A stretch of DNA of 38,296 nt from an uncultured delta proteobacterium (GCA_903885885.1 CAISKJ010001284.1:1-38296); one strand, 5' to 3'. Positions 2,987-37,825 are shown, numbered from the stretch's first letter. The notes: generated by a model from the letters alone, not told the origin. Made by a program: numbers and translations.

Positions 2987-6592
<3,606 letters not shown>

Positions 6593-6614
6593 GAGATCGA
6601 GTGCCTCCCTGCGG

Positions 6615-6632
6615 TGACTGACGTGTCAGTCA
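6615..6632. promoter_or_regulatory. Perfect 8+8 inverted repeat TGACTGAC-GT-GTCAGTCA upstream of the activase operon (operator candidate)
   Basis: Read directly. It lies 23 nt upstream of the activase ATG (6592, minus strand) in the 204-nt intergenic region. An AAAATTTT island lies at 6687-6694 in the same region. Confidence 0.3.
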
Positions 6633-6796
6633 GGGCAGGGCGGGGGTGTATCAGAAGCGACAGGCACTACGCAAGGCCGGGGCGCGAAAATTTTGCGTAG
6701 AGATCGGGAAGTTACGAAGGCAACGCGCGCAATGTGCGCATTGGCCAGGATGGCACGGAGGTAGGCGCCACCGCGGAGTGGGACGTAGTGGGGCCT

Positions 6797-8185: not shown

Positions 8186-8333
8186 CCGTTGCGACCTCGC
8201 GGGGTCGATGCCCGATCTGCGGGCGCGAACGCAAATTTTTTGCACGCAGTTTTCGACAGGAGCTCCAGAGCTTCGCGAAAATCGCGGATCTCGCGGGTTG
8301 TGCTCCGGCGCGTGCCTGTGCTCAATCGTCGCG

Positions 8334-13969: not shown

Positions 13970-14806
13970 ATGAACACGAAGGCGCTTTTCATCGCGATCG
14001 GGGCTGCGGTTCTCGGGCTCGTGTTCTTGCTCATGTACAAGAAGCGTTTCGAAACCGAGGCGTCGGGTGGCACACCCATCCCCGTGCTCGTAGCGGTGCA
14101 AGACATTCCCCTGGGCACCGCGCTCACCGAGACAATGCTCGGGCAGAGGTACATCCCGCAGGCCTACCTCGAGGACCGCTTCATCCGTTACTCCGACCTT
14201 CGTCGCATCGTGGGCGTGCGCGTGAGCATGGGCCTCAAGGCCAACCAGACCGTCATGTGGACCGACCTCGCCACGGCCTCCGACGCGCGCCGCGACCTGT
14301 CGAGCCTCGTGAGCAACGGCATGCGCGCCATCACGGTGCGCGCTGACATCACGAACTCGTTCGGCGGCCTGCTGCGCCCGGGCGATCGCGTCGACGTGCT
14401 CGGTACGCTCTCGCGTACGGGCGGCGAGAACGATCGCGTGACCATTCCGCTGCTCCAGAACGTGCTGGTGCTTGCCGCAGGGCGTGACACGGGCGGTGAG
14501 GCGCAGCGCCAGCAGGTGAACGGTCAGTCGAACCCGTCGAACCAGCCGCAGGACATCTCGCAGGTGACGCTCAGCGTCTCGATGGAAGAGGCGCAGCTTC
14601 TCACGTACGTGTCCGATCGCGGCGGGGCGAGCGGGCGGCACACGGGGCTCACGCTCGTGCTGCGCAACCCCGAAGACATCGCCATCATCGAGAACGTCCC
14701 CGAGACCGGCATCGATGACATCTTCGAGCCCGTGCGTCGCCAGCAGATCTCGCGTCGTCGCCGCCAGATCATCGAGCGCATCGGCCCCAGCAACCCGAAC
14801 CCGTAG
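13970..14806 (+). CDS. cpaB: Flp pilus assembly protein CpaB/RcpC
   Basis: N-terminal TM helix, a SAF-like segment (VLVAVQDIPLGTALTETML...) and an RcpC/CpaB segment (GMRAITVRAD...GGLLRPGDRVDVLGT). Confidence 0.85.
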   Translation: MNTKALFIAIGAAVLGLVFLLMYKKRFETEASGGTPIPVLVAVQDIPLGTALTETMLGQRYIPQAYLEDRFIRYSDLRRIVGVRVSMGLKANQTVMWTDLATASDARRDLSSLVSNGMRAITVRADITNSFGGLLRPGDRVDVLGTLSRTGGENDRVTIPLLQNVLVLAAGRDTGGEAQRQQVNGQSNPSNQPQDISQVTLSVSMEEAQLLTYVSDRGGASGRHTGLTLVLRNPEDIAIIENVPETGIDDIFEPVRRQQISRRRRQIIERIGPSNPNP

Positions 14807-14845
14807 CCTCGCACGAACCTCATCGAGGAGCCGCCGAAGACCGCC

Positions 14846-16189
14846 ATGACCCTCCGCACCCTCCGCACGCTGCGCCTCGCAGGAGCGCTCTCCGTCGCGC
14901 TGTCCGCTGCACTGATCCCCTCGGCGGCCTTCGCGCAACAGCCCGCCGCCACACCTGGTCGTGGCGCGGGGCGCGACCTCACGCTCGCCATCGGCGAGCA
15001 GGTGGTGATCCCCGCGGGCGACATTCGACAGTTCTCCGAGGGCACGCCCGGCATCGTCGATGTGCGCACCTCCAACGACGGTCGTATGATCGTCGTGGGG
15101 CAGCGCGCGGGCAGCACAACCCTGCTTCTGATTCACGCCGGCGGCAACCAGGAGAACCTTCAGATCACGGTGTTTGCGCGGCGCCCCGAGGCCGTGCAAG
15201 CCGAGATTGAGAACCTCCTCGAGGGCTACACCGGCGTGCAGATTCGACGGGTGGGCGCGCGCCTCTACCTCGAGGGCGGCGTGGCCAGCGAGGCCCAGCA
15301 GCGCCGCGTGCAGCAGATCGCGACGCTGTACCCCGGCCAGGTCGAGTCGCTCGTGGCCATCGATCCGACCATCGTCGAGCGCCGCATCAACGTTCGCCTC
15401 GACCTGTACTTCGTCGAGCTGTCGACCAACGCGTCGCGCCGCGTGGGGCTTTCGTGGCCCGCGTTCATCGGTGGCAGCGCGCAAGACTGGCGCCTTGACT
15501 CTTCGTACAACCTCATCGCCCCGCTGGGCGGTCAGTCGGTGCCGCCGGGCGTGCAGTTCGCACGCGCCACGCTTTCGAATCAGCCCCTGCCGCGCCTCGA
15601 CATCGCCGCGAACGGCGGCTACGCGCGGGTGCTCCGTCAGGCCACGCTCATCACGGCCAACGGCAACGAGGCACGCTACCGCAACGGCGGCGAGCTCAAC
15701 TTTCGCCTCGTGGCGGGCAACGGTGGCGCATCGCTCGCGCAGATCGAGTTCGGCACCACCGTGAAGGTCACCCCGCGCTTCGATCCGCAGAGCTCGCGCA
15801 TCGACCTCCGCGTCGAGGCTGACATCTCCGATCCGGTGCAGACGGGCACCGAACTCCCCGGTCGAAACATCTCGCAGCTGAACACTCTGGTGAACCTTCA
15901 GCTCGGGCAGTCGATCATCATGTCGGGCTTTCGCTCGCGCACGCAGACGAACGGCTCGTCGGGTCTGCCGGGGCTTCGATCGATTCCGATTCTCGGGTAC
16001 CTCTTCGGCACCGAGGCCAACGACGAGACCGAGCGCGAGGGCATGATCTTCATCGTGCCCACGGTGATCGAGGGCATCTCGCGCAGCGCGCAAGACCGCG
16101 TGGCCGAGGCGCTTCGCCAGTACGAGCAGTTCTCGGGCGACATGGACGACGTGCGGCTCTACGAAGCCACGGGCGCGCAGTACCGCTAA
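14846..16189 (+). CDS. cpaC: Tad-type outer-membrane secretin CpaC/RcpA
   Basis: Signal peptide (...SAAFAQQ). N-terminal pilus-formation domain (LTLAIGEQVVIPAGDI...IVDVRTS...VVGQRAGSTTLLL). C-terminal secretin signature GLPGLRSIPILGYLFG...IFIVPTVI. Confidence 0.9.
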   Translation: MTLRTLRTLRLAGALSVALSAALIPSAAFAQQPAATPGRGAGRDLTLAIGEQVVIPAGDIRQFSEGTPGIVDVRTSNDGRMIVVGQRAGSTTLLLIHAGGNQENLQITVFARRPEAVQAEIENLLEGYTGVQIRRVGARLYLEGGVASEAQQRRVQQIATLYPGQVESLVAIDPTIVERRINVRLDLYFVELSTNASRRVGLSWPAFIGGSAQDWRLDSSYNLIAPLGGQSVPPGVQFARATLSNQPLPRLDIAANGGYARVLRQATLITANGNEARYRNGGELNFRLVAGNGGASLAQIEFGTTVKVTPRFDPQSSRIDLRVEADISDPVQTGTELPGRNISQLNTLVNLQLGQSIIMSGFRSRTQTNGSSGLPGLRSIPILGYLFGTEANDETEREGMIFIVPTVIEGISRSAQDRVAEALRQYEQFSGDMDDVRLYEATGAQYR

Positions 16190-16250
16190 GACAAGCTGTC
16201 CTCTCGCGGGCGCCGCGGCGCCGCTGCGTAGAGGGCGCCGCAAGGAAGCG

Positions 16251-18029
16251 ATGGATCAGGTCCTCCTCTCGATCGAGACGCCCAACTCCCCTCCGATGAC
16301 CTACATGGTCCCGTCGGGCGGAGAGATCTCAATCGGGCGCGACGAGACCTGCACCGTGGTGCTCGCCTCGCCCGACATCTCGCGTCGGCACGTGAACATC
16401 AACATTCACCCGCAGTCGATCGTCGTGCGCGACTCGTCGAGCAACGGTACGCAGGTCGGCACGCAGCGGGTGTTTCGCTCCGAGCTCCCAGTCCCCTTCG
16501 GCACGCCCATTCAGGTGGGGCCGTATGTGATCCGCGTGATTCGGCAGGGCGCGCAAAACGCGGCCGCCGCGCCGCCGCCGGGGGCCGTGCCGCCTCTTCC
16601 GCCGGTGCCAGGTCGTGGGCCCAACCCCATGGGGCAGACCATGGCTGCGGGTGCCAACGGCGCGCCTCGTCGCAACGTGCCCACCATGATGCCCGGGCAG
16701 GGCCCGCCGGGCATTCCGCAGGGGCCCGCCGCGCCCACCGCGGCCGCGCCGTCGGGCGGCACGATGCACGTCTCGGTGGAGCTGCGGCGACGCATCCACC
16801 GCATGCTGCTCGACCACATGGACCTCGCGGTGCTCGACCGCTCCAAGATGGCCGACAACATGATGCGGCCGAAGGTGCGCGAGGCCCTCAAGCGCATCAT
16901 GGCGCAGGTCGCGCAGGACCTGCCTCCGGGCACCGATCAAGAGCAGCTGATGCAGGAGATGGCCGACGAGGCGCTGGGCCTCGGGCCCCTCGAGCGCTTT
17001 CTGGCCGACGGCACCATCTCAGAAATCATGGTGGTCGATCCGCACACGATCTTCGTCGAGAAGCGCGGCAAGCTCGTGCGGGCCGAGGCGCGCTTCACCG
17101 ACGACGAGGCCGTGCGAAGCTGCATCGAGCGCATCGTGACGCCCCTCGGTCGGCGCATCGATGAGAGCACGCCGCTCGTCGACGCCCGCTTGAAAGACGG
17201 CTCGCGCGTCAACGCGGTGATCAAGCCCCTGGCCATCAAGGGCGCATGCATCACCATTCGTAAGTTTTCGAAGACTCCGCTGGGCTTGAACGACCTTGTG
17301 GGCTTCGGCTCGCTCACCGACCAGATGGCGCGCTTTCTTACGCGCTCGGTGATCGCCAAGAAGAACATTGTGATCTCGGGCGGCACGGGCTCGGGCAAGA
17401 CCACGCTGCTCAATGTGCTCTCGGGCGCCATCCCGAAGGACGAGCGCATCATCACGATTGAAGACGCGGCGGAGCTGCAGCTCAACCAGCCGCACGTGGT
17501 GTCGCTCGAGTCGCGCCCGGCCAACATGGAGGGCAAAGGCGAGTACACGATTCGCGACCTCGTAAAGAACGCGCTTCGTATGCGCCCCGACCGCATCGTG
17601 GTGGGCGAGTGCCGCGGCGGCGAGTGCCTCGACATGCTCCAGGCGATGAACACGGGCCACGACGGCTCGCTCACGACGACGCACGCCAACTCGCCGCGCG
17701 AGGCCATCAACCGCCTCGAGGTGCTCGCGCTCATGTCGGGCATCGATCTCCCCGCGCGCGCCATTCGCGAGCAGATTGCCAACAGCGTGCACCTCGTGGT
17801 GCAGCAGTCGCGCTTCTCCGACGGTTCGCGCCGCGTCACGTGGATCACCGAGGTGATCGGCCTCGACGACAACTTCGAGATCCAGCTCCGGCCCATCTAC
17901 GAGTTTCTTCGCAGCGGCACGGGGCCCGACGGCAAGGTGCTCGGCGAGTACCGCGCGACGGGGTATCTCCCGTCGTTCCTCGATGTGTTCATCTCGCTCG
18001 GCCTCGTGCAAGGGAGGGACTATTTGTGA
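16251..18029 (+). CDS. cpaF: FHA-domain-fused Tad secretion ATPase (CpaF/TadA family)
   Basis: N-terminal FHA-like core (ISIGRDETCTVVLASPDISRRHVNINI...VVRDSSSNGTQVGTQRV). Pro/Ala/Gly-rich linker. ATPase with Walker A GGTGSGKTTLLN, Asp box IITIEDAAEL and His box NTGHDGSLTTTHAN. Confidence 0.9.
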   Translation: MDQVLLSIETPNSPPMTYMVPSGGEISIGRDETCTVVLASPDISRRHVNINIHPQSIVVRDSSSNGTQVGTQRVFRSELPVPFGTPIQVGPYVIRVIRQGAQNAAAAPPPGAVPPLPPVPGRGPNPMGQTMAAGANGAPRRNVPTMMPGQGPPGIPQGPAAPTAAAPSGGTMHVSVELRRRIHRMLLDHMDLAVLDRSKMADNMMRPKVREALKRIMAQVAQDLPPGTDQEQLMQEMADEALGLGPLERFLADGTISEIMVVDPHTIFVEKRGKLVRAEARFTDDEAVRSCIERIVTPLGRRIDESTPLVDARLKDGSRVNAVIKPLAIKGACITIRKFSKTPLGLNDLVGFGSLTDQMARFLTRSVIAKKNIVISGGTGSGKTTLLNVLSGAIPKDERIITIEDAAELQLNQPHVVSLESRPANMEGKGEYTIRDLVKNALRMRPDRIVVGECRGGECLDMLQAMNTGHDGSLTTTHANSPREAINRLEVLALMSGIDLPARAIREQIANSVHLVVQQSRFSDGSRRVTWITEVIGLDDNFEIQLRPIYEFLRSGTGPDGKVLGEYRATGYLPSFLDVFISLGLVQGRDYL

Positions 18030-18895
18030 ACCCCTCGGCGCAGACCACGCTCATGGGCTGGATGTCGGTGCTTCTCCTCGCGGCGGGCGTCGCGGTGGCG
18101 ATCTACATCACCCTCACCGACCCCGAGAGTTTTCTCGCGAAGCTCTACGCCGACTACGTGAAGCACCTCGACGCCGAGCTGCGCGGGCTGTTCATTCAAG
18201 AGCCCACGGGGCGCACCATCGCCAACTGGCAAATCGGCGCCGCGGTGGCCATCGTGACGGTCCACGTGATGGCCGAGCAGCCCGTCGCGTATCCGCTCAT
18301 CCCCTTCGTGGCCATTCTGCCCAAGATCTGGCTTATTGACGCGAAGACCAAGCGACAAGACAAGATCGAGCAGCAGCTCGACTCTTTTCTGACCGCCCTC
18401 GCCAACGCGCTCAAGGCCTCGCCCTCGCTCGGCGACGCGATGGGCAACACGGCCACCCTGCTGCGCTCTCCGTTGAAGGAAGAGCTCGAGCTCACCATGA
18501 AGGAGACGCAGCTCGGCATGCCGCTCGACCAGGCCATTCTCAACATGGGCGGCCGTGTGGGGTCGCGGGCCTTCGCGGGCGCGCTCACCACGGTGCTCAT
18601 CGGTCGGCAGACGGGCGGCGACCTCCCGCGCATCCTCGAGACGTCGGCCTCCACCCTCCGTGAGATGGCGCGCCTCGAGGGCGTCGTGCGCACCAAGACC
18701 GCCGAGGGCAAGGCGCAGGCGTGGGTGCTCGGCGTGATGCCCCCCATTCTCATCGGCATTCTCAACTGGATCGACCCCCAGTGGCTCACGCCCCTCAACA
18801 CCACCTTCATCGGTGGGATCGTCTGGCTCGTGGCCGTGCTCTTCTGGATCGCCGCGGTGTTCCTCGCGCGCAAGATCCTCTCGGTCGACATCTGA
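18026..18895 (+). CDS. tadB: TadB-like inner-membrane platform protein (T2SS-F family)
   Basis: GTG start overlaps the cpaF stop (GTGA at 18026-18029). TM helices plus a T2SSF-type cytoplasmic domain (LDSFLTALANALKASPSLGDAM...). Confidence 0.8.
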   Translation: MNPSAQTTLMGWMSVLLLAAGVAVAIYITLTDPESFLAKLYADYVKHLDAELRGLFIQEPTGRTIANWQIGAAVAIVTVHVMAEQPVAYPLIPFVAILPKIWLIDAKTKRQDKIEQQLDSFLTALANALKASPSLGDAMGNTATLLRSPLKEELELTMKETQLGMPLDQAILNMGGRVGSRAFAGALTTVLIGRQTGGDLPRILETSASTLREMARLEGVVRTKTAEGKAQAWVLGVMPPILIGILNWIDPQWLTPLNTTFIGGIVWLVAVLFWIAAVFLARKILSVDI

Positions 18896-18919
18896 GGGCG
18901 CAGGCGTAGGAGACCCCCA

Positions 18920-19834
18920 ATGGGCATGACACCCGTCACCGCGCTGTTCTTCTACCTCTCCCTGGCGCTCTGCGTGCTGGGCTTCGGGGTCTTCGTCTAT
19001 CAGCTCGCCCTCACTCCGGCAGATATTCAGCCCGATGTGGGCATCAAGGGCCTCAAGCGACAGGCCGTGCTCGATGAGGGTGGTCCCTTCAACACCGTCG
19101 AGCCCCTCATGCGCTGGCTCGCCACGCGCATCGCCGCGCTGCCCATCGCCGACATGCGCGAGAAGGTCAACGCGCAGATTCGCCACGCGGGCGAGTATCT
19201 CGGTCTCACCGCCGACGAGTACCTCGCGCTCTGCGTGCTGGGCTCGCTGGGCTTCGCCCTCTTCGGCTTCGTGGTCGATTATCTGGCCCCCATCGGCGGC
19301 GTGTTCGTGCTGATGTTCGCGGCCTTCGGGGCCATTCTTCCGCACATGCAGCTGTCGGGTGAGATCGAGCGGCGCTTCACGCAGGTGAACCGCGGTCTGC
19401 CCTTCGCCATCGACCTCGTGGCCCTCACCATGAGCGCCGGGTTGGACTTTCCCGGCGCCCTCCGTCAGGTGACCGAGAAGACCTCGGACAAGAACGACGC
19501 GCTCTACGAAGAGATGCAGCGCATTCTGCAGGAGCTCGAGCTGGGGCGCACGCGCAAGCAGGCGCTCCTCGCCTTCGCCGACCGTTGTCCCACCGAGGCT
19601 GTGCGCGATTTCGTCTCGTCGGTGGTGCAGGCTGAGGAGAAGGGCAACCCCCTCGCCGACGTGCTCCAGATTCAAGCCACCATGCTTCGCATGCGACGCA
19701 GCGTGGCCGCGGAGGAGAGCGCGGCGCGCGCGGGCGTGCTCATGATGGGCCCGCTGATGCTCATCTTCGCGACCATCATGCTCATTATTCTGGGGCCCTT
19801 CGCCGTGAACATCATGTCAGGCCACGGGATCTGA
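18920..19834 (+). CDS. tadC: TadC-like inner-membrane platform protein (T2SS-F family)
   Basis: AGGAG RBS. T2SSF-type region RGLPFAIDLVALTMSAGLDFPGALRQV flanked by TM helices. Confidence 0.8.
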   Translation: MGMTPVTALFFYLSLALCVLGFGVFVYQLALTPADIQPDVGIKGLKRQAVLDEGGPFNTVEPLMRWLATRIAALPIADMREKVNAQIRHAGEYLGLTADEYLALCVLGSLGFALFGFVVDYLAPIGGVFVLMFAAFGAILPHMQLSGEIERRFTQVNRGLPFAIDLVALTMSAGLDFPGALRQVTEKTSDKNDALYEEMQRILQELELGRTRKQALLAFADRCPTEAVRDFVSSVVQAEEKGNPLADVLQIQATMLRMRRSVAAEESAARAGVLMMGPLMLIFATIMLIILGPFAVNIMSGHGI

Positions 19835-19850
19835 CAGGGAGCGCACCTCA

Positions 19851-20744
19851 ATGCCCACGCCGCAGCTCGATGTCTACCTCCCCGATGGAACGGTGCAGAA
19901 CTTTCCCCTCACCGACGAGCGCGTGGTGGTGGGCACGTCGACCAAGTGCCAGGTGATGATCGATCGGCCGGAGCTCGCGCCCGAGCACCTGCTCGTCTCG
20001 CCTCGGCCCGACGGGTGTTGGGTCGCCGTCGCGCGCGGGGTGGCCACGCCGACGATCGTCGACAACATGCCCTTCGAACGCGGCATGGTCACCTGGGGCA
20101 AGACCATTCAGGTCGGTCAGGTGCGCATGGTGCTCGCCGACGGCACCCGCGCGAAGAGCAACGCCAACAAAGACAAGGACAAGAAGGAAGAGAAGGTCTC
20201 TCCGGTCATTCTCGGGGCCGCCGTGATCGTGCTGGGCCTCGCCGGGTGGATGCTTCTCACGGAGCCGGGCAACCTCGCGCCGCCGAGCCGCGTGTCGACC
20301 CCGCCGCCGGCCCTCTTCGACGACCTCAACCGCCCGTGCCCGCAGGCCGACCCGTCGCTCATCGTGTCGACCGCCGAGGAGAGCACGCGCATCGCCCTCT
20401 CGAAGGCCGAGCGCATGCCGTTTCGCACGCAAGACGGCGTCGAGGCCGTGACGTACTACGCCCAGGCCGGGTCGTGCTACCGCGCCGCGGGCAACGCCGA
20501 GGCCTCCACCGAGGCGATGCGCCGGGCCAACCTGCTGCGCGCCCGCCTCGAGGAGGAGTACACGGCCCATCGCTTTCGCCTCGAGCGCGCGCTCGAGCAG
20601 ACGCGCTACGAAGACGCCCTCTACGAGGTGAAGATGCTCACGGCGCTCGTGACGCACCGCCGCGGGCCGTACCTCACCGCCCTCAACACGCTCGAGCGTC
20701 AGCTCACCATTCGCATCGATCAGGCCGCTGCCGCGAACCGGTAG
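19851..20744 (+). CDS. FHA-domain membrane protein with helical (TPR-like) C-terminal domain
   Basis: FHA-like N-terminus (RVVVGTSTKCQVMIDRPELAPEHLLV...VDNMPF...IQVGQVRMVL). Lys-rich linker, one TM helix (VILGAAVIVLGLAGWMLL), and a helical repeat-like C-terminus. Confidence 0.75.
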   Translation: MPTPQLDVYLPDGTVQNFPLTDERVVVGTSTKCQVMIDRPELAPEHLLVSPRPDGCWVAVARGVATPTIVDNMPFERGMVTWGKTIQVGQVRMVLADGTRAKSNANKDKDKKEEKVSPVILGAAVIVLGLAGWMLLTEPGNLAPPSRVSTPPPALFDDLNRPCPQADPSLIVSTAEESTRIALSKAERMPFRTQDGVEAVTYYAQAGSCYRAAGNAEASTEAMRRANLLRARLEEEYTAHRFRLERALEQTRYEDALYEVKMLTALVTHRRGPYLTALNTLERQLTIRIDQAAAANR

Positions 20745-29000: not shown

Positions 29001-30458
29001 TTACACGTCGAGGGGGCGTTGCACGAAGCCGTAGGAGGGCTCGCACCACAGGGCTTGCGGCACCACACCGTCAGGGGCGACGACGTGAAGCAGGTATGCC
29101 TGCGGATGTCCGGAGGCCACTTCACGCCATTCGGAGTCGTCGCCGACGCGAAGCGCGACGATCTGGTGCTCGATGTGGGCGAGCACCACAGGGCGCTCAC
29201 TGTTGGCGTTGGGAATCACCCAGGCGTCGGGACGCTTTCGGTTGTGGTGCGGAGGCGCAATGAACTGCCAGAGCGCCAGGGTGGCCGAGCCGTCGAGGGC
29301 GATGCGCGCGAGGGACATGCGACCGTCGACGCCCGTGGGGCCGAAGAGCAGGTCGACGGTGCCCGTGGGCTCTACCGCGACGGGCGGCATGCCCACGGCT
29401 GCGATGGCTTCGGGGTACGTTGCGAGGGTGACGGGACCCTGCGAGGTGCCGGTGTCGGGCCAGAGGGTCATGCGGGCGATGGCAGTGCCTTCGTGGCTGG
29501 CGAAGGCGAGCACGACGTCGACGACGCGGCCCTCATCGCGCTGCGTGGCGGTGGCGCACCACGTCGCGGGGAGCGTGTCGATGCCTGTGGGGAAGGCCAT
29601 CACCACGGGCTGCGCCGCGCGCGCGTGGCAGGTGATGACGAGGAGCGTGAATTGGCCCGCCGCGTCGAGGCCCGCCGCGAGAAACGATGCAGACTCGGTC
29701 TCGGTCTGCCAGCCTACCTCGTAGAGCGAGGCGCGCGGGAGCGGGAGGGTGGTCGGGGCGATGCGCATGAACACGGTCGCACACTGCGCGACACCCGCAG
29801 CGAAGACATTGTCGCCAAGGGTGGCGTACCAGCGGTTCTCTGCGCAGGGGGCGAAGCTCAACGCGGTGGCGATGGTCAGCGCGCGCACCCCTGCGGGCAG
29901 TCGGTCTCTCGCGAAGAGCTGTCCCGTGAGCGGGGCCTCTTCGTGGCCTGAGCGCTGATAGATCTCGGTTTGATTGCCCTGTGTGTGGTGGGCGAGCGTC
30001 AGGGTGAGCGCCTGGTCGCCTGGACACCAGCCGACGGCGAGGTCGATGACGTTCGGGGGCTGCACGGTGAGGGGGACGGCGGCCGATTCGATTGCGGCGC
30101 CCCGCGCGCGCCAGGATACAGAGAGCAGGTATGCGCCCGGTGCGATGTCGTCGGGGGCGAGCGCTCCGAGATCGTGCTTGCTCGTGAGCGTTGCGCCGGG
30201 GGCGAGGGTGACGTACTCGTAGCGCGGGGCGGGGGCGGAGTCTTGATTGCGCTCGCTGAGCGCAGCGAAGGCGCTCAGCGCGTAACGCCCGTCGCCCGTA
30301 GGCATATCACGGAGCGAGAACTCGTAGGGGCTCATCGCATCGGGGGAGGGCACCTCGACGGGGGCGTCTCCCCGGTTGGTGATGGCGACGGTCACCGGGA
30401 TGGAGCAAGCGACGAGCGCCTGCGTGGCCGCGGTCGAGACGATCAGCACGAGAGACAT
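29001..30458 (-). CDS. Lipoprotein, last gene of the effector operon (immunity/inhibitor candidate)
   Basis: MSLVLIVSTAATQALVAC (lipobox). It is the only protein of the six-gene operon with a signal peptide. The N-terminal segment (VTVAITNRGDAPVEV...YEFSLRD...) looks beta-sandwich-like. Confidence 0.6.
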   Translation of the reverse strand: MSLVLIVSTAATQALVACSIPVTVAITNRGDAPVEVPSPDAMSPYEFSLRDMPTGDGRYALSAFAALSERNQDSAPAPRYEYVTLAPGATLTSKHDLGALAPDDIAPGAYLLSVSWRARGAAIESAAVPLTVQPPNVIDLAVGWCPGDQALTLTLAHHTQGNQTEIYQRSGHEEAPLTGQLFARDRLPAGVRALTIATALSFAPCAENRWYATLGDNVFAAGVAQCATVFMRIAPTTLPLPRASLYEVGWQTETESASFLAAGLDAAGQFTLLVITCHARAAQPVVMAFPTGIDTLPATWCATATQRDEGRVVDVVLAFASHEGTAIARMTLWPDTGTSQGPVTLATYPEAIAAVGMPPVAVEPTGTVDLLFGPTGVDGRMSLARIALDGSATLALWQFIAPPHHNRKRPDAWVIPNANSERPVVLAHIEHQIVALRVGDDSEWREVASGHPQAYLLHVVAPDGVVPQALWCEPSYGFVQRPLDV

Positions 30459-30500: not shown

Positions 30501-33500
30501 TTAGGGGTGGGCGAATTTATTGCCAGGGCCGCCCAGGCCGGTGACGCGCCAGCCGCGGTTGCGCAGCACACACACGCCGCAGAAGTAGCCGAGCTCGCCG
30601 TAGCGGCAGTCGGAGTAGCTCATGATGCAGCGCCGATCCCAGCGCTTGGCCTTGGGGTCGGCGTTGCCGCCGAGGCCGCCCCAGGTGACGTTGCTCACCT
30701 TCTCGTTGGCCGCGGTGTCGTGGAGGTTGTCTTTCTGGCCGGGGCCGTCACCCGCGTGCTCGAGGTGCCGATGGTGGCCCACCTCATGCGCCCACACCGA
30801 CTTGAGGCGATCTTCGGCCTCGCCTTCATAGAAGAGCCACGTGGCGCCGAGCGCGCCGCCCACGGCCGGGAGCGACATCGCGCTGCGGGTGAGGTATCCG
30901 CGGTCGGTGATTTTGCCCGCGGCTGCGGTCGCGGTCGTGCAGCCCGGTGAGGGGCAGTTGGTATTGTGCTTGGGGCCGTTGCTCGTAGCCTTCTTGAGGC
31001 CCCAGTAGCTGTGAACCGTCGTCCCGTTGCACTTGTACTGTGCGATGTAATAGGTCGGAGATGCCTTGAACTCCAGGAAGAGGTGCCCGCGCAGGTATCC
31101 CTTGCGCTCGGCCTCGCGCACGAAGGCCATGAGCAGGGCCGCGCGGAACTTCCGCCACGTCGCGGAGCAGATCGTGTCGAGCCAGGTGTTGAGCTCGCCC
31201 TGAGGCAGGTCGACGGTGGTCAGGTCGGGCCAGCCGAAGTCGTTCTGGTCGGCCCAGGGCCACAGGTGCTCTGCGTGGAGGGTGACCTTGTTCTTGTCCT
31301 TGAGTCCGGCCTTCGTGACGTTGCGTGTAACGATCTCTTTGAAGCGGGTCTTGTGCGTGTTGTTGCCGGGGTCGAACACTGCCGAGAGGGCGAGGGTGTT
31401 GGCGGTGCCGCCCTCGTGTACGAAGTACACGTGCGCCGCGCGATAGAACGCGCGAAAGGCGTTGATGAAGCTCGCGCCCCAGTTGCCGCCGCCGCTGCCC
31501 CAGCGAGAATAGGCGCGGAACGAGCTCCGTCGCCACACGCGCATCGCGGGGCCCGCCGCCTGCGGGCGCACCGGGTAGCGGGCCTTCAGGGCTTCCAGGT
31601 TGGGAAACTCATAGCCGTCGAACTTCTCGAAGCGGACCTCGGCGCGCACGCGGTACCCGTCGCCCGCGATGATCGAAGGTCGAAAGAACACCCCGGCGCG
31701 CCCGATGCTCTCTTCGAAGAGGTCGGTGTTCTTACGCTGCGCATCCGCGAGGTGGTCGTGGGCCACCGTGGCCATGCACTCCTTGTCGCCGATCGCCTTC
31801 GGCTTCCACGGCTTGAGGCTCAGGTCGCCATCGGAGAACACCGCCGTGTGGTAGCTCGCCGCGCTCGACGGTCGCACGCCCCCGAGGGCCTCGGTGCAGT
31901 TGATGTACACGGCTTCGCGCTTCGTGTCGGCCCGCGTGTGCTTCGCCTGGTTCTGCGCGAGGGCCCACTGCACGTAGCGCTGCGTGCGAACGAAGCTCTT
32001 GTCGTAATTGGCGTGGCCCGTGTCGATGGCGCTGAGATCGTAGGAGAGCTCGTCGACGGTCCAGTCGACGCGCACCGGACCGAGCGCCGCGCGCATCGTG
32101 TCGATGTCGTCGGTGGAGGGGTTCGCGTCGACGTCGTCGCCGAGGTGCTTGTCACGACTCATGAGCCGCGCCGTCGCCTGAAGAGGGATCCACGGCCGCG
32201 GGATCTCGGCGAGGTCGAGCGTGGTCTTGCCGTCACCTACCACCATGCCCCCGCGGTAATTCAAGAGCCCCATGCGCTCGCGCGGGGCGTTGCCCGAGAG
32301 GAAGGCGTTGCCCTGTTCGTCGAGGGCGGCGTCGGCCGCGGTGTTGTACTGCCGGTCGTCGACCCACACCACCACGTCGTCGAGCACGCGCTTGAGGGAT
32401 TGTTTGTAAGTGTCGTGCGCGAGGTCGGGCGCATCGCTGTTGCCGCGGATGCCCTGAATGTCACCGAAGACCGTGCGCTTGTCGCTCGCGCGAATGTGTT
32501 GAATGGCCTCGTAGAGGTCGCCGCTCTCGGCGGTGTCGATGGCCATTCGCTGATAGTCCGAGGTGGTCTTGTGGCGCGGCACCGAGCGCTTGAACTCGCG
32601 CAGGGCGCGCTCGTAGTGCTCGTTGGTCGAGCCCGTGACGGGCCCCGGGTGAAAGCCGAACTCGGCCAGCTTCATCTGGAGGTAGGCGGTGTCCGCGGTG
32701 GGGGCAACACCGAGCACCATGGGGGCGGGCTCGAGGATGAGGCTCGCGGGGGTCACCCGCGACTCGAACGCGAAGTGATCGGCGTCGACCGCGCCCGGCG
32801 CCACGTGCAGTCGCACCTCCGTGTGCATCGAGGCGAGGGCCAGCCCCTTCTCCTCGTGCGGCCCCGTGTGGGCGCGCACCTCGACGCGGTAGGGCATGTC
32901 GGCGGCGATGAGCGCGTCGCCGTCCTTGCTGTTCTTGATGCCCTCGGCGTAGGCGCCGTCCCAGTCGTCGATGGCGTGCTCCCCCTTGCCGACGAGCGCC
33001 TTCTTCAGCGGTCGTTCGAACACCACCTTGTGGTTCTTGTCGACGACGCGAACGATCCCCTCGGCGAGGCGCGAGGTCTCGCGCACCTCCCACTCGATCT
33101 TCAGCGACTCCTTCTTCGGCTCCTCCGTCGAGGTTCGCACCTTGTACACGTAGGGCGCGTTCTCGTTGTTGGCGTTGCCATCGGCGTCTACGCTGTTGGC
33201 GTCGTCGAGGTACGCCCCTTCGCCGTGCGTATTCTGAATCTCGCCGAGGTACTTCTTGTCCCATGTGAACGTGCGCTCACCAGACTTGAGCTGGTCGCCC
33301 TTGAGCACCGCGAAGAACACTCGGCGACCGCCCTTGTCGACCACCTCGACGGCGCCGCACACGACGTCCGCGGCGTTGGTCCATTTAAGCTCGATGGAGC
33401 CTCCCGCCGTGACGGTGGGCGTGTGCTCGGCCTTCGTCTCTTTGAACACAGGCCAGAAGGGCTTCACGAGCAGCAGGGCCTTCGCGTCGCTGGCCTCGCC

Positions 33501-34229
33501 GTCTTTGCGCGCGCGGAGCACAACCGTGTAGGGAGAGAACGCCACGTTGACGTAGCGCTCGCTGGCGGTGCCCGTCTTGCGCGAGAGCAGGCCCTTCTCG
33601 GTGTTGGCCTCGCCGGTCCAGCCGCCATCGGCCAGCGTGGTCTCTTCCGCCCGCTTCGCGCCCGAGATGTCTTTCTTGTAGATGGGCTCGTCGACGAGGT
33701 CGTCGGGCTTGCCCCAGGTGCCCAGGCCCTCGCTCCAGTCGGTACATTCGCAGTATTGGCTGCCAAACACCATGAAGTCGAGCTTGTCGGCGCAGGCCGC
33801 GAGGCCGTGCGCCACGTACTTCGCCTCGCACTTCTCCTTCTTCGGGATGAACCACCGGTCGAGCGCGCGGAAGCTCACCGCGGCCGCGGGCCGCGCGCGC
33901 TTCAGGTGCACCGTGTGGGTCTGCTTGGGGGCGAGGTCCGAAGTCCAGGCGGTCGGCACCTTGAGCTTGGGGGTGTCGAGCTTCGCGTCGGGCGTCATCG
34001 GGAGCCTGGACGGGTCGTCCTTGTGCGGCCCCGCCTGATCGGTGAGCTTGACGCCGATCGTCTCTACCAGCGCACGAACGACCTCGTCTCGCTCTGCGGT
34101 GCCGAAGTTGTACCGGGCGAGCGCCTTCCAATCGCTGACGCCTTTGGCCTGGGCGATGCTGCTCAGCGTGTCGCCCGCCTGCACGGTGTAGGCGTCGCTC
34201 GCGTCGTGTCTCTTGTAGATCTTTGTCAT
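30501..34229 (-). CDS. 1242-aa LysM / peptidoglycan-binding-like / metzincin-type zinc metalloprotease, no signal peptide
   Basis: LysM at the extreme N-terminus (YTVQAGDTLSSIAQAKGVSDWKALARYN). Two related beta-sandwich modules (…IELKWTNA..GAVEVVDKGGRRVFF… and …LKIEWEVR..GIVRVVDKNHKVVFE…). PG_binding_1-like helix pair (YLQMKLAEFGFHPGPVTGSTNEHYERALREFKRSV). C-terminal HEVGHHRHLEH (HExxHxxxxxH) followed by a Met-turn-like CIMSY. GGAGGGG RBS. Confidence 0.8.
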   Translation of the reverse strand: MTKIYKRHDASDAYTVQAGDTLSSIAQAKGVSDWKALARYNFGTAERDEVVRALVETIGVKLTDQAGPHKDDPSRLPMTPDAKLDTPKLKVPTAWTSDLAPKQTHTVHLKRARPAAAVSFRALDRWFIPKKEKCEAKYVAHGLAACADKLDFMVFGSQYCECTDWSEGLGTWGKPDDLVDEPIYKKDISGAKRAEETTLADGGWTGEANTEKGLLSRKTGTASERYVNVAFSPYTVVLRARKDGEASDAKALLLVKPFWPVFKETKAEHTPTVTAGGSIELKWTNAADVVCGAVEVVDKGGRRVFFAVLKGDQLKSGERTFTWDKKYLGEIQNTHGEGAYLDDANSVDADGNANNENAPYVYKVRTSTEEPKKESLKIEWEVRETSRLAEGIVRVVDKNHKVVFERPLKKALVGKGEHAIDDWDGAYAEGIKNSKDGDALIAADMPYRVEVRAHTGPHEEKGLALASMHTEVRLHVAPGAVDADHFAFESRVTPASLILEPAPMVLGVAPTADTAYLQMKLAEFGFHPGPVTGSTNEHYERALREFKRSVPRHKTTSDYQRMAIDTAESGDLYEAIQHIRASDKRTVFGDIQGIRGNSDAPDLAHDTYKQSLKRVLDDVVVWVDDRQYNTAADAALDEQGNAFLSGNAPRERMGLLNYRGGMVVGDGKTTLDLAEIPRPWIPLQATARLMSRDKHLGDDVDANPSTDDIDTMRAALGPVRVDWTVDELSYDLSAIDTGHANYDKSFVRTQRYVQWALAQNQAKHTRADTKREAVYINCTEALGGVRPSSAASYHTAVFSDGDLSLKPWKPKAIGDKECMATVAHDHLADAQRKNTDLFEESIGRAGVFFRPSIIAGDGYRVRAEVRFEKFDGYEFPNLEALKARYPVRPQAAGPAMRVWRRSSFRAYSRWGSGGGNWGASFINAFRAFYRAAHVYFVHEGGTANTLALSAVFDPGNNTHKTRFKEIVTRNVTKAGLKDKNKVTLHAEHLWPWADQNDFGWPDLTTVDLPQGELNTWLDTICSATWRKFRAALLMAFVREAERKGYLRGHLFLEFKASPTYYIAQYKCNGTTVHSYWGLKKATSNGPKHNTNCPSPGCTTATAAAGKITDRGYLTRSAMSLPAVGGALGATWLFYEGEAEDRLKSVWAHEVGHHRHLEHAGDGPGQKDNLHDTAANEKVSNVTWGGLGGNADPKAKRWDRRCIMSYSDCRYGELGYFCGVCVLRNRGWRVTGLGGPGNKFAHP

Positions 34230-34250: not shown

Positions 34251-35045
34251 TTAGCCCGCGGACTCCAACGCGTCTACCCAGAACATCGGCTCCTCGGCTC
34301 CCTCTTCGGCCTCTTCGTCGTATGCGAGCTCGGTCACCTTGAAGGGGCCATCGCCGTTGGGAAACCGAGCCTTGTAGGCCCCCTGCGCGTCGGTGCTCAC
34401 GACGCGCTCGGCGAGGCCTGGCGGTACGAGTTTGATGGCGACACCCTCCACGGGCGTGCCCGGCGCGGGGCGCTCTCTCACCACGAGAGAAACCCAGACG
34501 GGCGGCTCGATGACAAAATACACCCAGCGCGACATCACCTCGCGGCGATACTCGCCAGGCGGGACGCGCAGCCGAAGCTTGTAGACCGCGCGGTCGTCGC
34601 CGAAATCGAAGGGGACGAGGGTGCTGAGGTCGAGCGAGTGCGAGCCGTTGGCGCTCGGGGGGCCGTCGTCCCACTGAAGGTCGTGCGTCCACACGGGCAG
34701 GAGCACGTTGGGGCGGTAGATCTCGATCGTCGCGCGGCGCGCGTGCGTGTGACCCTTCAAACGCCAGCCGATGGTCACGCTGCCTGAATCGACCTTGTAC
34801 CGAAGCCGGGTGGTGCTGTCGGCGGGCACCGTGGGGTGCGCATGCTGGGTGTAGGACGTGTCGTAGGTGTGCGTGCCCTGGGTGAGCGACAGCGCCTCGA
34901 CGCCGACCACACGACGCACGAAGGAGATACCTTTATGCAGGTCGTAGGCGGCGCGCGCTACAAGGCCCTTGCCGAGGTACTTATGGTCCGTGCTCTCGAC
35001 GTCGAGAAAACTGCTCCCGACGATGGCGGGTGGGGTCCAGGTCAT
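34251..35045 (-). CDS. Hypothetical protein with C-terminal transthyretin/CarboxypepD_reg-like segment
   Basis: AGGAG RBS 8 nt upstream. C-terminus VSLVVRERPAPGTPVEGVAIKLVP...STDAQGAYKARF. Acidic tail. No signal peptide. Confidence 0.55.
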   Translation of the reverse strand: MTWTPPAIVGSSFLDVESTDHKYLGKGLVARAAYDLHKGISFVRRVVGVEALSLTQGTHTYDTSYTQHAHPTVPADSTTRLRYKVDSGSVTIGWRLKGHTHARRATIEIYRPNVLLPVWTHDLQWDDGPPSANGSHSLDLSTLVPFDFGDDRAVYKLRLRVPPGEYRREVMSRWVYFVIEPPVWVSLVVRERPAPGTPVEGVAIKLVPPGLAERVVSTDAQGAYKARFPNGDGPFKVTELAYDEEAEEGAEEPMFWVDALESAG

Positions 35046-35078: not shown

Positions 35079-35714
35079 CTATTCGGTCTCGTGGTTTCCG
35101 TGCAGCCGTGAGCGGGTCACGTCGTCGAGCTCGCCCGTGGGCTCCATCCCCTGCTGCCGCTGGAAGCGACGGAGCGCGTCGCGCGTCGGCTCGTCGAGCG
35201 CCCCCGTGCTGTGACAGGGAAAGCCGAGGTTGGAGAGGCGCGCCTGCACGCCCGTGAGCTCCTCGACGGGGTCGAGGTGGCCGAGCGCGAGGTCGTACTC
35301 CTCTTCGCGGTCGCCCTCGCCGATGGTGAGTTTCGCCGACTGGGCCTTCGGGGCGATGGACACCTCTACCCAGCCGTCGCCGTTGGTGGTCCCTTGTGAG
35401 ACCTGGCCGTCGACGCGCAGGGTGTAGGGCTCGTTGGCGCGGGGCTCGTCTTCCCACAGGAAGCGCATGCGCAGCTTCGCGGGCACCCCCTTGACCTTCC
35501 ACGTGTGCCGCGCGCCCGTCGGTCGCATGTACGACGTCATGCGCTTGTCGGGGATGGTCACCACGTCGCCCGCGAAGAGCACGTTGGGGTGGCGCCCGAG
35601 CTCATGCAGCCGCGCGTTGTCGGGGTGGTTCCACAGGGTCTGCCAGTAGAAGCCGTACTTCTCCGCGATGCTCGTGAGGCACTCGCCCTGTTGCACGCGA
35701 TGCGTCGTCGACAT
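35079..35714 (-). CDS. LysM + beta-sandwich + PG_binding_1-like protein (211 aa), no signal peptide
   Basis: N-terminal LysM (HRVQQGECLTSIAEKYGFYWQTLWNHPDN...GDVVTIP). Central beta-sandwich-like segment. C-terminus VQARLSNLGFPCHSTGALDEPTRDALRRFQRQQGMEPTGELDDVTRSRL is a classical PG_binding_1 pattern. Strong GGGAGGGAGAG RBS. Confidence 0.75.
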   Translation of the reverse strand: MSTTHRVQQGECLTSIAEKYGFYWQTLWNHPDNARLHELGRHPNVLFAGDVVTIPDKRMTSYMRPTGARHTWKVKGVPAKLRMRFLWEDEPRANEPYTLRVDGQVSQGTTNGDGWVEVSIAPKAQSAKLTIGEGDREEEYDLALGHLDPVEELTGVQARLSNLGFPCHSTGALDEPTRDALRRFQRQQGMEPTGELDDVTRSRLHGNHETE

Positions 35715-35730: not shown

Positions 35731-36324
35731 TCACTGCGGCTCTTCGCGGCTCTTGCGGAGATAGTCGCCCAGCCAGTGGAGCCGTCGCTGCACCTGCGTG
35801 TCGCGTTGCGACAGGGCGTCGTGTTCGAAGCGGTACTCGCCGATGGTGCTCGCCCGCTCGCCCTCGATGAAGAACCGGTCGACGGGGCCGAACACCTGAC
35901 GCAGCTCGTCGGGCGTGCAGGTGGGCAGGTAGGTGCGCAGCACGCGCGGGTCGTAGTACCGAAAGAGCAGCTTGCGGCCGGCCTCGTCTTGCACGCGCAA
36001 GATGCGACGAAAATGCTGGTGCAGCGCGGCCAGCGACGACGCCGGCGCGCGGAGGTAGACGCCCCATGCCTCACCCCACCCGCGGCGCAGGAGCTCGCGC
36101 GTGGCGTCGTCGTCGCGCGAGAGCCGCACGATCCACGGCGCGGCGCGCGCCAGCGAGGGCGACAGCTCGCCGATGAAGAGGCACCGGTGCTCGAGCTTCG
36201 ACCCCGTAATGATCGGGTGCACCTGCGGGTCGCGCGCCCCATCGAGAATGGCGTACGCCGACGCGTCGTCGCCCGCGGGCCACAGGCGCTCGCGCAGCTG
36301 CTCCATCGGGACCTCGTCGGCCAT
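35731..36324 (-). CDS. DUF4123-family protein (T6SS effector adaptor/chaperone-like, Tap/TEC type)
   Basis: AYAILDGARDP...AAPWIVRL...WGVYLRAPASSLAALHQHFRRILRVQDEAGRKLLFRYYDPRVLRTYL matches my memory of the DUF4123 signature (YALLDGA ... RFYDPRVL). Start set at MADEVPMEQ (36324), 4 nt after the upstream stop. Confidence 0.7.
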   Translation of the reverse strand: MADEVPMEQLRERLWPAGDDASAYAILDGARDPQVHPIITGSKLEHRCLFIGELSPSLARAAPWIVRLSRDDDATRELLRRGWGEAWGVYLRAPASSLAALHQHFRRILRVQDEAGRKLLFRYYDPRVLRTYLPTCTPDELRQVFGPVDRFFIEGERASTIGEYRFEHDALSQRDTQVQRRLHWLGDYLRKSREEPQ

Positions 36325-36328
36325 CGCC

Positions 36329-37276
36329 TCAGGCCCTCGCGCCCGAGCGCGCCAGCGCCCTGCGGGCGCGCTCGCACTCCTCGCAGAAGGGCACGCCGTC
36401 GCGCGCCGCATCGATCAGCGTCTGCGCCTGCGCGTCGTTGTCGTTGGACTCGGGGTGCCCCACCGTGGCGTCGAGCGCCGCGACGTGCGCGTCGTCGTCG
36501 AGGTTGGGCCAGCGCACCTCGCACTGCCCCGGGTCGAGGTCGCTGAAGTACGCGCGGCCCGCCCGGTCGAGCTTGCCCTGCCGCACCTGGCCGTCGGGCG
36601 TCTTGATCCAGTAGGCCTCGCCGGGCATGGGGTTGCCCTCCATGTCGGTGAGCTCGATCTCGACCCAGGTCTTCTCGCGCGGGGGAGGCGCCTCGAGCAT
36701 CGCCCGCGCGGGCACGGTGGCCTCCTCGTCGAGGTCGGGCCAGCGGATCTCGCACTGCCCCGGGTCGAGGTCGCCGAAGTACGCCCGCCCGAGCCGGTCG
36801 AGCGCGCCCTCGCGGACGCGCCCGTCGGGCAGCTGGATCCAGTAGCGCTCGCCGGGCATGGGGTTGCCCTCCATGTCGGTGAGCTCGATCTCGATCCACG
36901 TCTTGGGCAGCAGCTCGCTCGCGAGGGGAATGCGCTCGATCGCCTCGCTGTCGAGGTCGCCCGGCGTCGGCGCGGCCACGAGGTGCAGCCCCGTGCGCCA
37001 CGCCCGCAGCACGCCCCGGGCGAGCGCCTGGCGCACCACCGCGCGGTCGTCGCCCGCGAGGGGCACCACGCGCCCGTAGCGCGCCGTGACGTAGCGCGCG
37101 CACTCGGCGAGCGTGCGGGCCGCGACGCTGTGCGACGAGCCCACGATCTTGTCGATGGCCCGCAGCGCCTGCGCCTCGGTGAGCGCGTTGGCGCGCCGCT
37201 CGCGCCCCGCTCCCCACGGTGTGAGCAGCACCTCGTAGGTCTCGCCGATGAGTCTCCACCGAGGTCGCAGCATCAC
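36329..37276 (-). CDS. Protein with two tandem 77-aa-period beta-sandwich (transthyretin-like) repeats
   Basis: KTWIEIELTDMEGNPMPGERYWIQLPDGRVREGALDRLGRAYFGDLDPGQCEIRWPDLD is repeated as KTWVEIELTDMEGNPMPGEAYWIKTPDGQVRQGKLDRAGRAYFSDLDPGQCEVRWPNLD. No signal peptide. GTG at 37276 or ATG at 37273. Confidence 0.6.
   Translation of the reverse strand: MMLRPRWRLIGETYEVLLTPWGAGRERRANALTEAQALRAIDKIVGSSHSVAARTLAECARYVTARYGRVVPLAGDDRAVVRQALARGVLRAWRTGLHLVAAPTPGDLDSEAIERIPLASELLPKTWIEIELTDMEGNPMPGERYWIQLPDGRVREGALDRLGRAYFGDLDPGQCEIRWPDLDEEATVPARAMLEAPPPREKTWVEIELTDMEGNPMPGEAYWIKTPDGQVRQGKLDRAGRAYFSDLDPGQCEVRWPNLDDDAHVAALDATVGHPESNDNDAQAQTLIDAARDGVPFCEECERARRALARSGARA
36500..36904 (-). repeat. Intragenic tandem direct repeat, 231-bp period, two copies
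   Basis: Near-identical DNA blocks, e.g. GCCGGGCATGGGGTTGCCCTCCATGTCGGTGAGCTCGATCTCGA at about 36620 and again at about 36851. The same 231-nt offset appears between track ORFs 36627.. and 36858.., which share the prefix MGLPSMSVSSIS. Confidence 0.85.
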
Positions 37277-37342: not shown

Positions 37343-37825
37343 TCAGCGAGCCGTCGCGTTCGGCGGCCCTGCCTCGATCGCCGCGAGGAGCCCCGCGGAG
37401 GCCCGCGCGCAGATGTCGTACACGCGCGCGAACTCGCCCGTGTACCAGGGGTCGGGCACGTCGTCGTGGTCGGCGTCGGGCTCGTACCGACGAAAGAGGG
37501 TGACCTTCGCGCGCTCGGCGTCGGTGCGCGCGAGGCGCGCGAGGTCGCGGTGGTTCTGCCGGTCCATGGCGACGATGCGGTCGAAGCGGTCGAAGTCGGC
37601 GTGCGTGACCTGGCGCGCGCGGTGGGTGATGGCCACGCCCCGGCGCGACGCCTCGGCGCGCGTGCCCGGGTGCGCCGCCTCGCCGACGTGGTTGGCGCTC
37701 GTGCCCGCGCTGTCGACGTGAAACCCCGCGGTGAGTCCGCGCGCGGCGAGGAGCGCGTTGAAGGCCGCCTCGGCGGTGGGCGAGCGGCAGATGTTTCCGA
37801 GGCACACGAAGAGCACGCGCTGCAT
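37343..37825 (-). CDS. Low-molecular-weight protein-tyrosine phosphatase
   Basis: MQRVLFVCLGNICRSPTAEA carries the CX5R(S/T) P-loop. A downstream DPWY segment fits the general-acid Asp region. Start at the ATG at 37825 within track ORF 37343..37903. Confidence 0.85.
   Translation of the reverse strand: MQRVLFVCLGNICRSPTAEAAFNALLAARGLTAGFHVDSAGTSANHVGEAAHPGTRAEASRRGVAITHRARQVTHADFDRFDRIVAMDRQNHRDLARLARTDAERAKVTLFRRYEPDADHDDVPDPWYTGEFARVYDICARASAGLLAAIEAGPPNATAR

Follow-up and report, generated by a model that had tools for sequence, protein, structure and literature searches.

A giant signal-less LysM protein with a metzincin-like C-terminal domain as a candidate type VI secretion effector in an uncultured delta proteobacterium

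Introduction

On the minus strand of a 38,296-nucleotide contig from an uncultured delta proteobacterium (GCA_903885885.1, CAISKJ010001284.1:1-38296; the whole stretch is referred to as the window), positions 30501 to 34229 encode a protein of 1242 amino acids (aa), hereafter the giant, which begins with a LysM domain, ends with a protease-like zinc motif and carries no signal peptide. The question arises how such a protein would reach a substrate and what it would do there. A preliminary description, made from the sequence alone, had taken it for a horizontally acquired, peptidoglycan-anchored protease that might cleave peptide stems, cross-links or envelope proteins of target cells. From our analysis it appears moderately likely that the giant is instead a cargo effector of a type VI secretion system (T6SS), that it acts as a metzincin-like protease on the envelope of the target cell, and that the gene immediately downstream provides immunity.

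Domain architecture of the giant protein

The open reading frame (ORF) is genuine, has an ATG start and is represented by 31 clusters of full-length homologues, all without a name, and by 41 loci in reference genomes. In searches of the whole protein against Pfam, NCBIfam and PDB sequences, only LysM and a weak LEM/PG_binding_1 match were returned and no peptidase family. The LysM domain (aa ~13-60; 34050..34193), which we propose to be a marker for loading onto VgrG, was correctly placed within the first 45 residues by the preliminary description: Pfam matches it at aa 14-41 with 23.5 bits (cut-off 20.9), and in the AlphaFold2 (AF2) model the region shows a beta-alpha-alpha pattern with a predicted local distance difference test score (pLDDT) >90. 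By inspection, the N-terminus of the giant has no hydrophobic signal sequence, the giant and 21 aligned homologues begin directly with LysM without a Sec or Tat signal, and no signal peptide, lipobox or transmembrane segment is seen in the giant or any aligned homologue.

LysM is followed by three consecutive beta-sandwiches, as modelled for aa 1-560 (pLDDT 82.1, predicted template modelling score (pTM) 0.77). The first is a conserved, strand-rich domain (aa ~100-262; 33444..33932) with the motifs NVAFSPYT and PFWP and the near-invariant pair Cys134/Cys160. The other two (aa ~263-372 and ~373-472; 32814..33443) had been noticed before as related Ig/beta-sandwich modules at 32910-33467, and their cores indeed align with each other (aa ~278-338 versus ~381-440, 32% identity over 60 residues, pairwise E 1e-5). 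They are FlgD_ig-like, FlgD_ig being a Pfam family that is matched by homologues of the giant, in one of them (P0074) above the cut-off; the first of the two modules is missing from distant homologues. In Foldseek, the beta-sandwich array matches macroglobulin (MG)/FN3-type sandwich arrays at E 1e-5, which is a generic match.

The next element is a helical, PG_binding_1-like segment (aa ~505-555; 32565..32717), and here, too, the earlier observation holds. The Pfam match (PG_binding_1/LEM-like, aa 514-548) is sub-threshold at E 0.042 and the segment is modelled with low pLDDT; it can be aligned (34% identity, E 3e-5) with a genuine PG_binding_1 domain, that of the 211-aa protein encoded nearby, and PG_binding_1 exceeds the Pfam cut-off in homologue P0074. 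A highly conserved alpha/beta domain of 314 residues (aa 575-888; 31566..32507) then forms the middle of the protein. It has 15 invariant columns in 35 sequences and is modelled confidently together with the catalytic domain that follows (aa 560-1242, pLDDT 81.8, pTM 0.83).

The C-terminal domain as a metzincin-like protease

The C-terminal domain (aa 889-1242; 30504..31565), which contains helical and Cys-rich insertions, carries the two motifs that had drawn attention to the protein. Both are present in the translation, namely HEVGHHRHLEH (aa 1148-1158; 30756..30788), which has the three His and the Glu of H-E-x-x-H-x-x-x-x-x-H at their fixed spacing and replaces the usual metzincin Gly with His, and CIMSY (aa 1201-1205; 30615..30629), a candidate Met-turn with the following Tyr. 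Across 38 homologues from at least 8 phyla, which share 26-72% identity, H1148, E1149, H1152, H1158, C1201, M1203 and Y1205 are invariant; the four zinc-motif residues are likewise invariant in an alignment of 22 homologues, and H1170, D1171, W1197, D1198, C1217 and C1220 (HD, WD and CxxC) are invariant or nearly so. Judged by this conservation, the motif is more than a chance occurrence. The invariant Met of C-x-M-x-Y lies 45 residues past H1158 in the sequence alignment. The Cys-Ile-Met turn resembles that of adamalysins, and a Tyr two residues past the Met is found in astacins and serralysins.

In the AF2 model the domain runs from a long strand through a helix, a strand, a helical insertion and several strands with a Cys-rich hairpin region to the active-site helix, which ends exactly at motif position 8, and on to the third His, then the Met, and finally a helix at the C-terminus. 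The catalytic domain of metzincins comprises a five-stranded sheet, an active-site helix and a C-terminal helix, and the predicted order of elements corresponds to that of a metzincin with adamalysin-like insertions. Searches with the model by Foldseek returned ADAM-8 and many snake-venom metalloproteinases (template modelling (TM) score normalised to the target, TMt, 0.4-0.5, E 0.4-1, probability 0.15-0.4), a profile search of PDB sequences returned acutolysin-C, trimerelysin II and archaemetzincin at E 0.6-2.3, and Pfam scans of the individual members gave, all below threshold, Reprolysin_5 in 6 of 38 members, M43 in 4, Reprolysin_4 in 3 and M66 in 2. Thus, by sequence and by fold, the protease-related weak matches of this region are to metzincin families only. 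SGNH-esterase-like rows in the Foldseek results (sialate esterase, XAC1771; E 0.4-0.6, TM ~0.1) were set aside as noise.

The invariant motif with its Met and Tyr, the predicted topology and the metzincin-only matches hence make a metzincin-type zinc metalloprotease, as originally suggested, the best reading of the C-terminus, and we hold it to be probable that the giant is a zinc protease. Since the Gly is never present and no curated model reaches its cut-off, we label the catalytic domain metzincin-like and place it in no existing curated family.

With a profile of this domain, 1.84 billion representatives yielded 305 proteins at E <= 1e-3, of which 120 also reach E <= 1e-30. Because almost all long matches are 1100-1600 aa in length and carry the domain C-terminally, it appears, as far as these sequences indicate, essentially confined to the architecture of the giant; in some members, Ig or FN3 domains are appended at the C-terminus. 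The stretch between zinc motif and Met holds PKD or zinc-ribbon insertions in other members, with PKD repeats in P0010 and an insertion of ~100 aa in P0012/P0013, so that the loop before the Met-turn is, by this comparison, very tolerant. In the distant members P0024 and P0026-P0031, runs of CxxC zinc-ribbon units precede the active-site helix.

A cassette linked to type VI secretion genes

The giant is the fifth gene of a six-gene operon on the minus strand with intergenic gaps of 4-42 nucleotides. The first gene (36329..37276) encodes a 315-aa protein with two direct repeats of ~80 aa (TWIEIELTDMEGNPMPGE...CEIRWP; window 36500-36920) that, by reading and by a weak CarboxypepD_reg match, are of the TTR/CarboxypepD_reg type. 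The second (35731..36324) encodes a DUF4123 protein (Pfam E 4.2e-32) with a weak NCBIfam match to Tla1, the chaperone of Tle1. DUF4123 proteins form the Tec/Tap family of adaptors for T6SS effectors. The third (35079..35714) encodes a 211-aa protein composed of LysM (22.1 bits) and PG_binding_1 (E 1.7e-11), which we propose to be a co-effector or loading adaptor, and the fourth (34251..35045) a 264-aa protein, possibly an accessory protein or adaptor, which has no Pfam match and is linked by profile to proteins of ~300 aa upstream of the giant at other loci that match CarboxypepD_reg; its C-terminal module would hence be TTR/CarboxypepD_reg-like. The sixth gene (29001..30458) encodes a partner of 485 aa. 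By inspection, none of the five operon proteins other than the adaptor has a signal peptide. Just upstream of the operon, at 37343-37825 (minus strand), lies a gene that reads as a low-molecular-weight phosphotyrosine phosphatase (CLGNICRS motif).

The combination of a DUF4123 gene, a LysM and PG_binding_1 gene and a downstream partner therefore points to a T6SS effector cassette, and the other loci agree with this. The giant and its partner form a conserved pair in ~45 loci, the remaining flanks being unrelated between loci, and the usual upstream neighbour of the giant is a fast-evolving protein of ~300 aa with a CarboxypepD_reg/TTR-like domain. Linkage of the cassette to vgrG, PAAR or adaptor genes is found in several independent lineages. 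In the Polyangiales copy with 71% identity (L007), the order is VgrG, the 315-aa homologue, a LysM and PG_binding_1 protein, the 264-aa homologue, the giant and the partner; this VgrG gene occupies the place that the phosphatase-like gene has in the window. A Desulfobacterales locus (L014) combines a ClpV-like ATPase, VgrG, the giant and a lipoprotein partner, and the VgrG has a C-terminal extension made of a TTR-like module related to the upstream proteins. DUF4123 genes lie upstream of the cassette in L041, in which a second protein of zincin-like type and several with PG_binding_1 are encoded as well, in a like arrangement in a 95% identical copy (L048), alongside a split VgrG in L049, and in L052. 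L050 has PAAR, DcrB/Eag and a PG_binding_1 protein.

The N-terminus of the giant fits the same picture. In a survey of 130,825 vgrG loci, LysM and PG_binding_1 were found stand-alone or fused to the N-termini of toxins, and it has been shown experimentally that LysM mediates the interaction between effector and VgrG (PMC10673891). In addition to the LysM domain of the giant itself, a separate LysM and PG_binding_1 protein is encoded upstream in the window and in 5 other loci, and it is fused to the N-terminus of the giant in L017, L019 and L030. We consider the association of the cassette with T6SS to be likely.

These data also bear on the idea of a recently acquired, self-anchored cell-wall protease, which LysM and PG_binding_1 would tether to the peptidoglycan of the producer for wall remodelling or attack at the surface. 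Such a protein would account for a LysM above the Pfam cut-off, a PG_binding_1-like segment, a protease motif and a family that is patchy across phyla. With no signal peptide, lipobox or transmembrane segment, however, the giant has no Sec or Tat route to the wall, its GC3 (GC content at third codon positions) and codon usage are native, and the linkage to DUF4123, VgrG, ClpV and PAAR recurs, so we regard this explanation as very unlikely. The description of the giant as peptidoglycan-anchored is doubtful, since no export signal is present and since N-terminal LysM and PG_binding_1 domains of effectors in vgrG loci have been shown to mediate loading onto VgrG (PMC10673891).

The surroundings of the L041 copy deserve separate mention. 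Over 313-2779 (minus strand) and 3099-8191, this island also carries HEAT-repeat, DUF6931 and NlpC/P60-like genes, and its second zincin-like protein (582 aa; HELGHVLGLGH; weak Reprolysin_4/M43) follows directly after another PG_binding_1 protein. To judge from its gene content, the island resembles a series of T6SS effector/immunity modules.

The 485-aa partner as putative immunity protein

A homologue of the 485-aa partner lies immediately downstream of the giant at nearly every locus, and we propose it to be the immunity protein. The family starts with an Ig-like module, and its divergence is extreme, since 23 sequences share three invariant columns; a word-index search with the partner retrieved only 3 close relatives, and neither Pfam nor NCBIfam gave a match. 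Most lineages have a partner that bears either a signal peptide or a clear lipobox. This pattern would match that of immunity proteins against T6SS toxins that act in the periplasm, such as PA0261, the counterpart of VgrG2b (PMC6899460), by analogy with which we propose an immunity function. It also fits the earlier suggestion that the giant may act on the envelope of target cells.

Signal peptides are missing from the partners in the window and in L007, L048 and L039/L040, all of which are Myxococcota, and additionally in L043, L020 and L035, so that these copies have either lost the signal peptide or never possessed one. The ORF of the window copy has no room for an upstream extension. At its N-terminus a lipobox-like LVAC is found, which in the alignment falls on the first strand of the mature domain.

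Two further explanations have to be weighed against these data. The giant could be a T6SS effector directed at eukaryotic or other non-kin targets, or one acting in the cytoplasm, with the partner serving as a cytoplasmic chaperone or inhibitor in Myxococcota. The partners without signal peptide in the window, L007, L048, L039 and L040 would be expected in such a case, and it is general knowledge that adamalysin-type metzincins classically degrade extracellular proteins of eukaryotes and that Polyangiales are predators. We nevertheless find it unlikely, as the partner is a lipoprotein or is secreted in most of the other lineages, which indicates the bacterial periplasm, and as the carriers are free-living in soil, sediment and water. 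Slightly less plausible still is that the giant is an accessory enzyme of the T6SS and not a toxin, for instance a TagX/MltE-like peptidase that clears the wall or a structural decoration of the spike, the partner being a periplasmic partner or regulator. The T6SS linkage would be the same as for an effector, PG-binding-type domains are present, and the partner is large for an immunity protein and has no catalytic signature in its sequence. An accessory role is at odds with a cassette that is sporadic across genomes and mostly an orphan far from T6SS cores, as is typical of effectors, with the effector-type adaptors (DUF4123, LysM) and with the lack of a membrane anchor or signal that would place the giant in the periplasm of the producer; we therefore deem it quite unlikely.

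Proposed mode of action and points against it

In the mechanism that we favour, the giant, which has no signal peptide, would be synthesised in the cytoplasm and loaded onto the VgrG spike via its N-terminal LysM region, probably with the help of the DUF4123 adaptor, the LysM and PG_binding_1 protein and the TTR-like proteins. After being fired into a neighbouring Gram-negative cell, its catalytic domain (H1148, E1149, H1152 and H1158, with Met1203/Tyr1205), together with the tightly packed middle domain, may cut a substrate in the envelope, with peptidoglycan peptides, lipoproteins or other periplasmic proteins as candidates. The large 485-aa protein encoded downstream would be the cognate immunity protein and probably resides in the periplasm.

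Several findings weigh against this mechanism. With respect to T6SS, VgrG, Hcp, PAAR and T6SS core genes are all missing from the window, and for about 30 of the 40 cassettes whose flanks could be used, no T6SS gene is found at a distance of up to 10 kb. The signal-less partners of the window and the other Myxococcota are odd for immunity against a toxin that acts in the periplasm, and because of them our confidence in a periplasmic target and in the immunity step is lowered, whereas that in the T6SS link is not. With respect to the protease, motif position 8 is His in the giant and His, Tyr, Ser or Gln in the homologues and never Gly, no curated metzincin hidden Markov model exceeded its cut-off (Pfam for the giant and the family members; NCBIfam), and no fold match is significant, the best adamalysin rows having E ~0.4 and a probability of 0.3-0.4. 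The remote-homology and structure searches hence yielded a metzincin-type order of elements and weak matches to go with it, but no match at significance, and the middle domain by itself had no match in Pfam or PDB sequences and no significant one in Foldseek. Finally, none of the evidence singles out a substrate of the giant.

A bolder version of this reading can be imagined, namely that the giants are unrecognised two-part T6SS toxins that contain a new lineage of metzincins (with a Gly-less motif, a Cys-Ile-Met-x-Tyr turn and zinc-ribbon insertions), that this lineage works in concert with the novel, invariant-rich 314-residue domain, which has a catalytic or substrate-capturing role of its own, and that the large immunity protein, built of Ig and repeats, has shifted between periplasm and cytoplasm across phyla. 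We put this forward tentatively and consider it doubtful in its entirety.

Gene composition and horizontal transfer

The preliminary description had inferred a recent horizontal acquisition from an atypical composition of the gene. With regard to the nucleotide sequence, this argument fails, as GC3 and codon usage of the giant gene are indistinguishable from the flanks. Its GC is 0.667 in a window that ranges from 0.63 to 0.75, and its GC3 is 0.904, compared with 0.85-0.97 for the five other operon genes and 0.87-0.92 for the Tad genes. In synonymous codon usage, the giant is at a distance of 0.065 from the pool of the other genes, the smallest value for any of 20 genes; since long genes carry less sampling noise, this value is a lower bound on atypicality and not a proof of adaptation.

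The high Lys content that had been pointed out in comparison with the neighbours is real with respect to the operon. Lys makes up 6.7% of the giant, and its K/(K+R) is 0.50, compared with 0.07-0.32 in the operon neighbours. Other genes of the window share this trait, however, as an ORF at 2987-6592 (1201 aa) reaches 0.58 and the arginine decarboxylase 0.40. Richness in Lys is also seen in the consensus of homologues from other phyla and is thus a trait of the family. The locally lower GC is hence due to the first-codon positions of a Lys-rich protein and not to foreign DNA, which may serve as a caution.

What remains of the proposed acquisition is an older transfer, which the patchy distribution and the non-syntenic flanks indicate. 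Relatives of the giant and its partner are spread, as a cassette, over at least 8 phyla in a patchy and taxonomy-incongruent manner. Besides Polyangiales (71% identity), the carriers include Piscinibacter sakaiensis 201-F6, Bryobacteraceae and other Acidobacteriota, Planctomycetota, Desulfobacterales, Opitutaceae, Ignavibacteriales, SAR324, Paracoccaceae and others (at least 8 phyla), and they are free-living bacteria of soil, sediment and water. The giant of the window is closer to the copies of Piscinibacter and Bryobacteraceae (47%) than to other copies from Polyangiaceae (33-34%), and the collinearity of the window with L007 stops exactly at the borders of the cassette. Judging from these comparisons, the cassette is mobile on an evolutionary time scale and has fully ameliorated in the window.

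In one lineage (L051), a Prim-Pol/DUF5906 gene and a phage-type integrase gene (13999-17731) lie ~6-10 kb from the cassette copy, a neighbourhood which suggests that the cassette may be carried on an integrative element there. Together with the fact that LysM proteins are core components of extracellular contractile injection systems (eCIS) and of phage baseplates (PMC10673891), this could be taken to mean that the giant is a component or cargo of a phage-tail-like eCIS or of a prophage. Neither the window nor any flank examined contains sheath, tube or baseplate genes, ClpV and DUF4123 are specific to T6SS, and a Foldseek search of the C-terminal model against a viral fold library gave nothing meaningful. 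As such, an eCIS or prophage origin is highly improbable.

Comparison with known systems

The closest functional parallel appears to be VgrG2b with PA0261 from Pseudomonas aeruginosa (PMC6899460). VgrG2b is likewise a T6SS zinc metallopeptidase with HExxH, the toxicity of its C-terminal metallopeptidase is restricted to the periplasm, a TTR-like module is involved in the attachment to the spike, and the immunity gene lies immediately downstream, its product PA0261 being targeted to the envelope and in some lineages a lipoprotein (PMC6899460). The two differ in that VgrG2b is covalently fused to the spike whereas the giant is a separate cargo of 1242 aa, and in that the giant adds a three-His motif with a Met/Tyr turn, the 314-aa domain, three beta-sandwiches and a partner of ~485 aa. 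No VgrG2b chain appeared in the PDB sequence searches or among the 50 Foldseek rows listed.

The second parallel is given by LysM-marked effectors, for instance the LysM-NlpC/P60 protein BRPE67_05220 of Burkholderia or the LysM adaptor Kalk_10460 with the toxin Kalk_10455 of Ketobacter (PMC10673891). As in the window, a toxin without signal peptide is combined with an N-terminal LysM, an upstream stand-alone LysM gene or both, PG_binding_1 serves as a second marker, and DUF4123-type adaptors and vgrG loci are involved (PMC10673891). The giant, for which binding to VgrG is proposed, is far larger than these effectors. By analogy, it would act like VgrG2b and the LysM-marked effectors while belonging to neither family.

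With adamalysins/reprolysins (M12B; ADAM-8 and the snake venom metalloproteinases), which give the best, though weak, fold matches and the sub-threshold Reprolysin_4/5 matches, the giant shares the HExxHxxxxxH spacing, the Cys-Ile-Met turn and a helical insertion between sheet strands. It deviates from them by the replaced Gly at position 8, by an Ala and not an Asp after the third His, by the Tyr two residues past the Met, by large Cys-rich/zinc-ribbon insertions and by the lack of a signal peptide or prodomain. Lastly, the cassette recalls the Tle1-Tla1-VgrG system in that the DUF4123 adaptor is weakly similar to Tla1 and in that TTR-like modules occur on the C-terminus of the L014 VgrG or as separate proteins. 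Tle1, however, is a phospholipase, and the TTR-like modules are here mostly stand-alone proteins.

In the literature on T6SS metzincins or LysM-HExxH effectors, we found no description of the family of the giant. If our reading is correct, the short list of T6SS protease toxins would grow by an effector family that is widespread but rare, with about 300 relatives in at least 8 phyla, mostly in bacteria of soil and sediment that are uncultured, and the idea of LysM/PG_binding_1 as loading markers would extend to metallopeptidase cargo. The same reading would also bring to light two conserved elements without known relatives, namely the 314-residue domain and the 485-residue partner. Since Piscinibacter (Ideonella) sakaiensis 201-F6 is a cultured carrier, these predictions can be tested.

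Other genes of the window

The Tad locus mentioned in the preliminary description is present at 13970-20744 and comprises genes of a Tad/Flp pilus, namely RcpC/CpaB, a secretin, a T2SSE ATPase whose N-terminal domain is of the FHA type, T2SSF and a further FHA/YscD-like gene; it is unrelated to the cassette. The 1201-aa ORF at 2987-6592, which is Lys-rich like the giant, encodes a BadF/BcrA-type CoA-enzyme activase fusion. It is followed by a DNA methylase-like ORF at 6797-8683 and by a gene for an HTTM-domain protein at 8732-9943.

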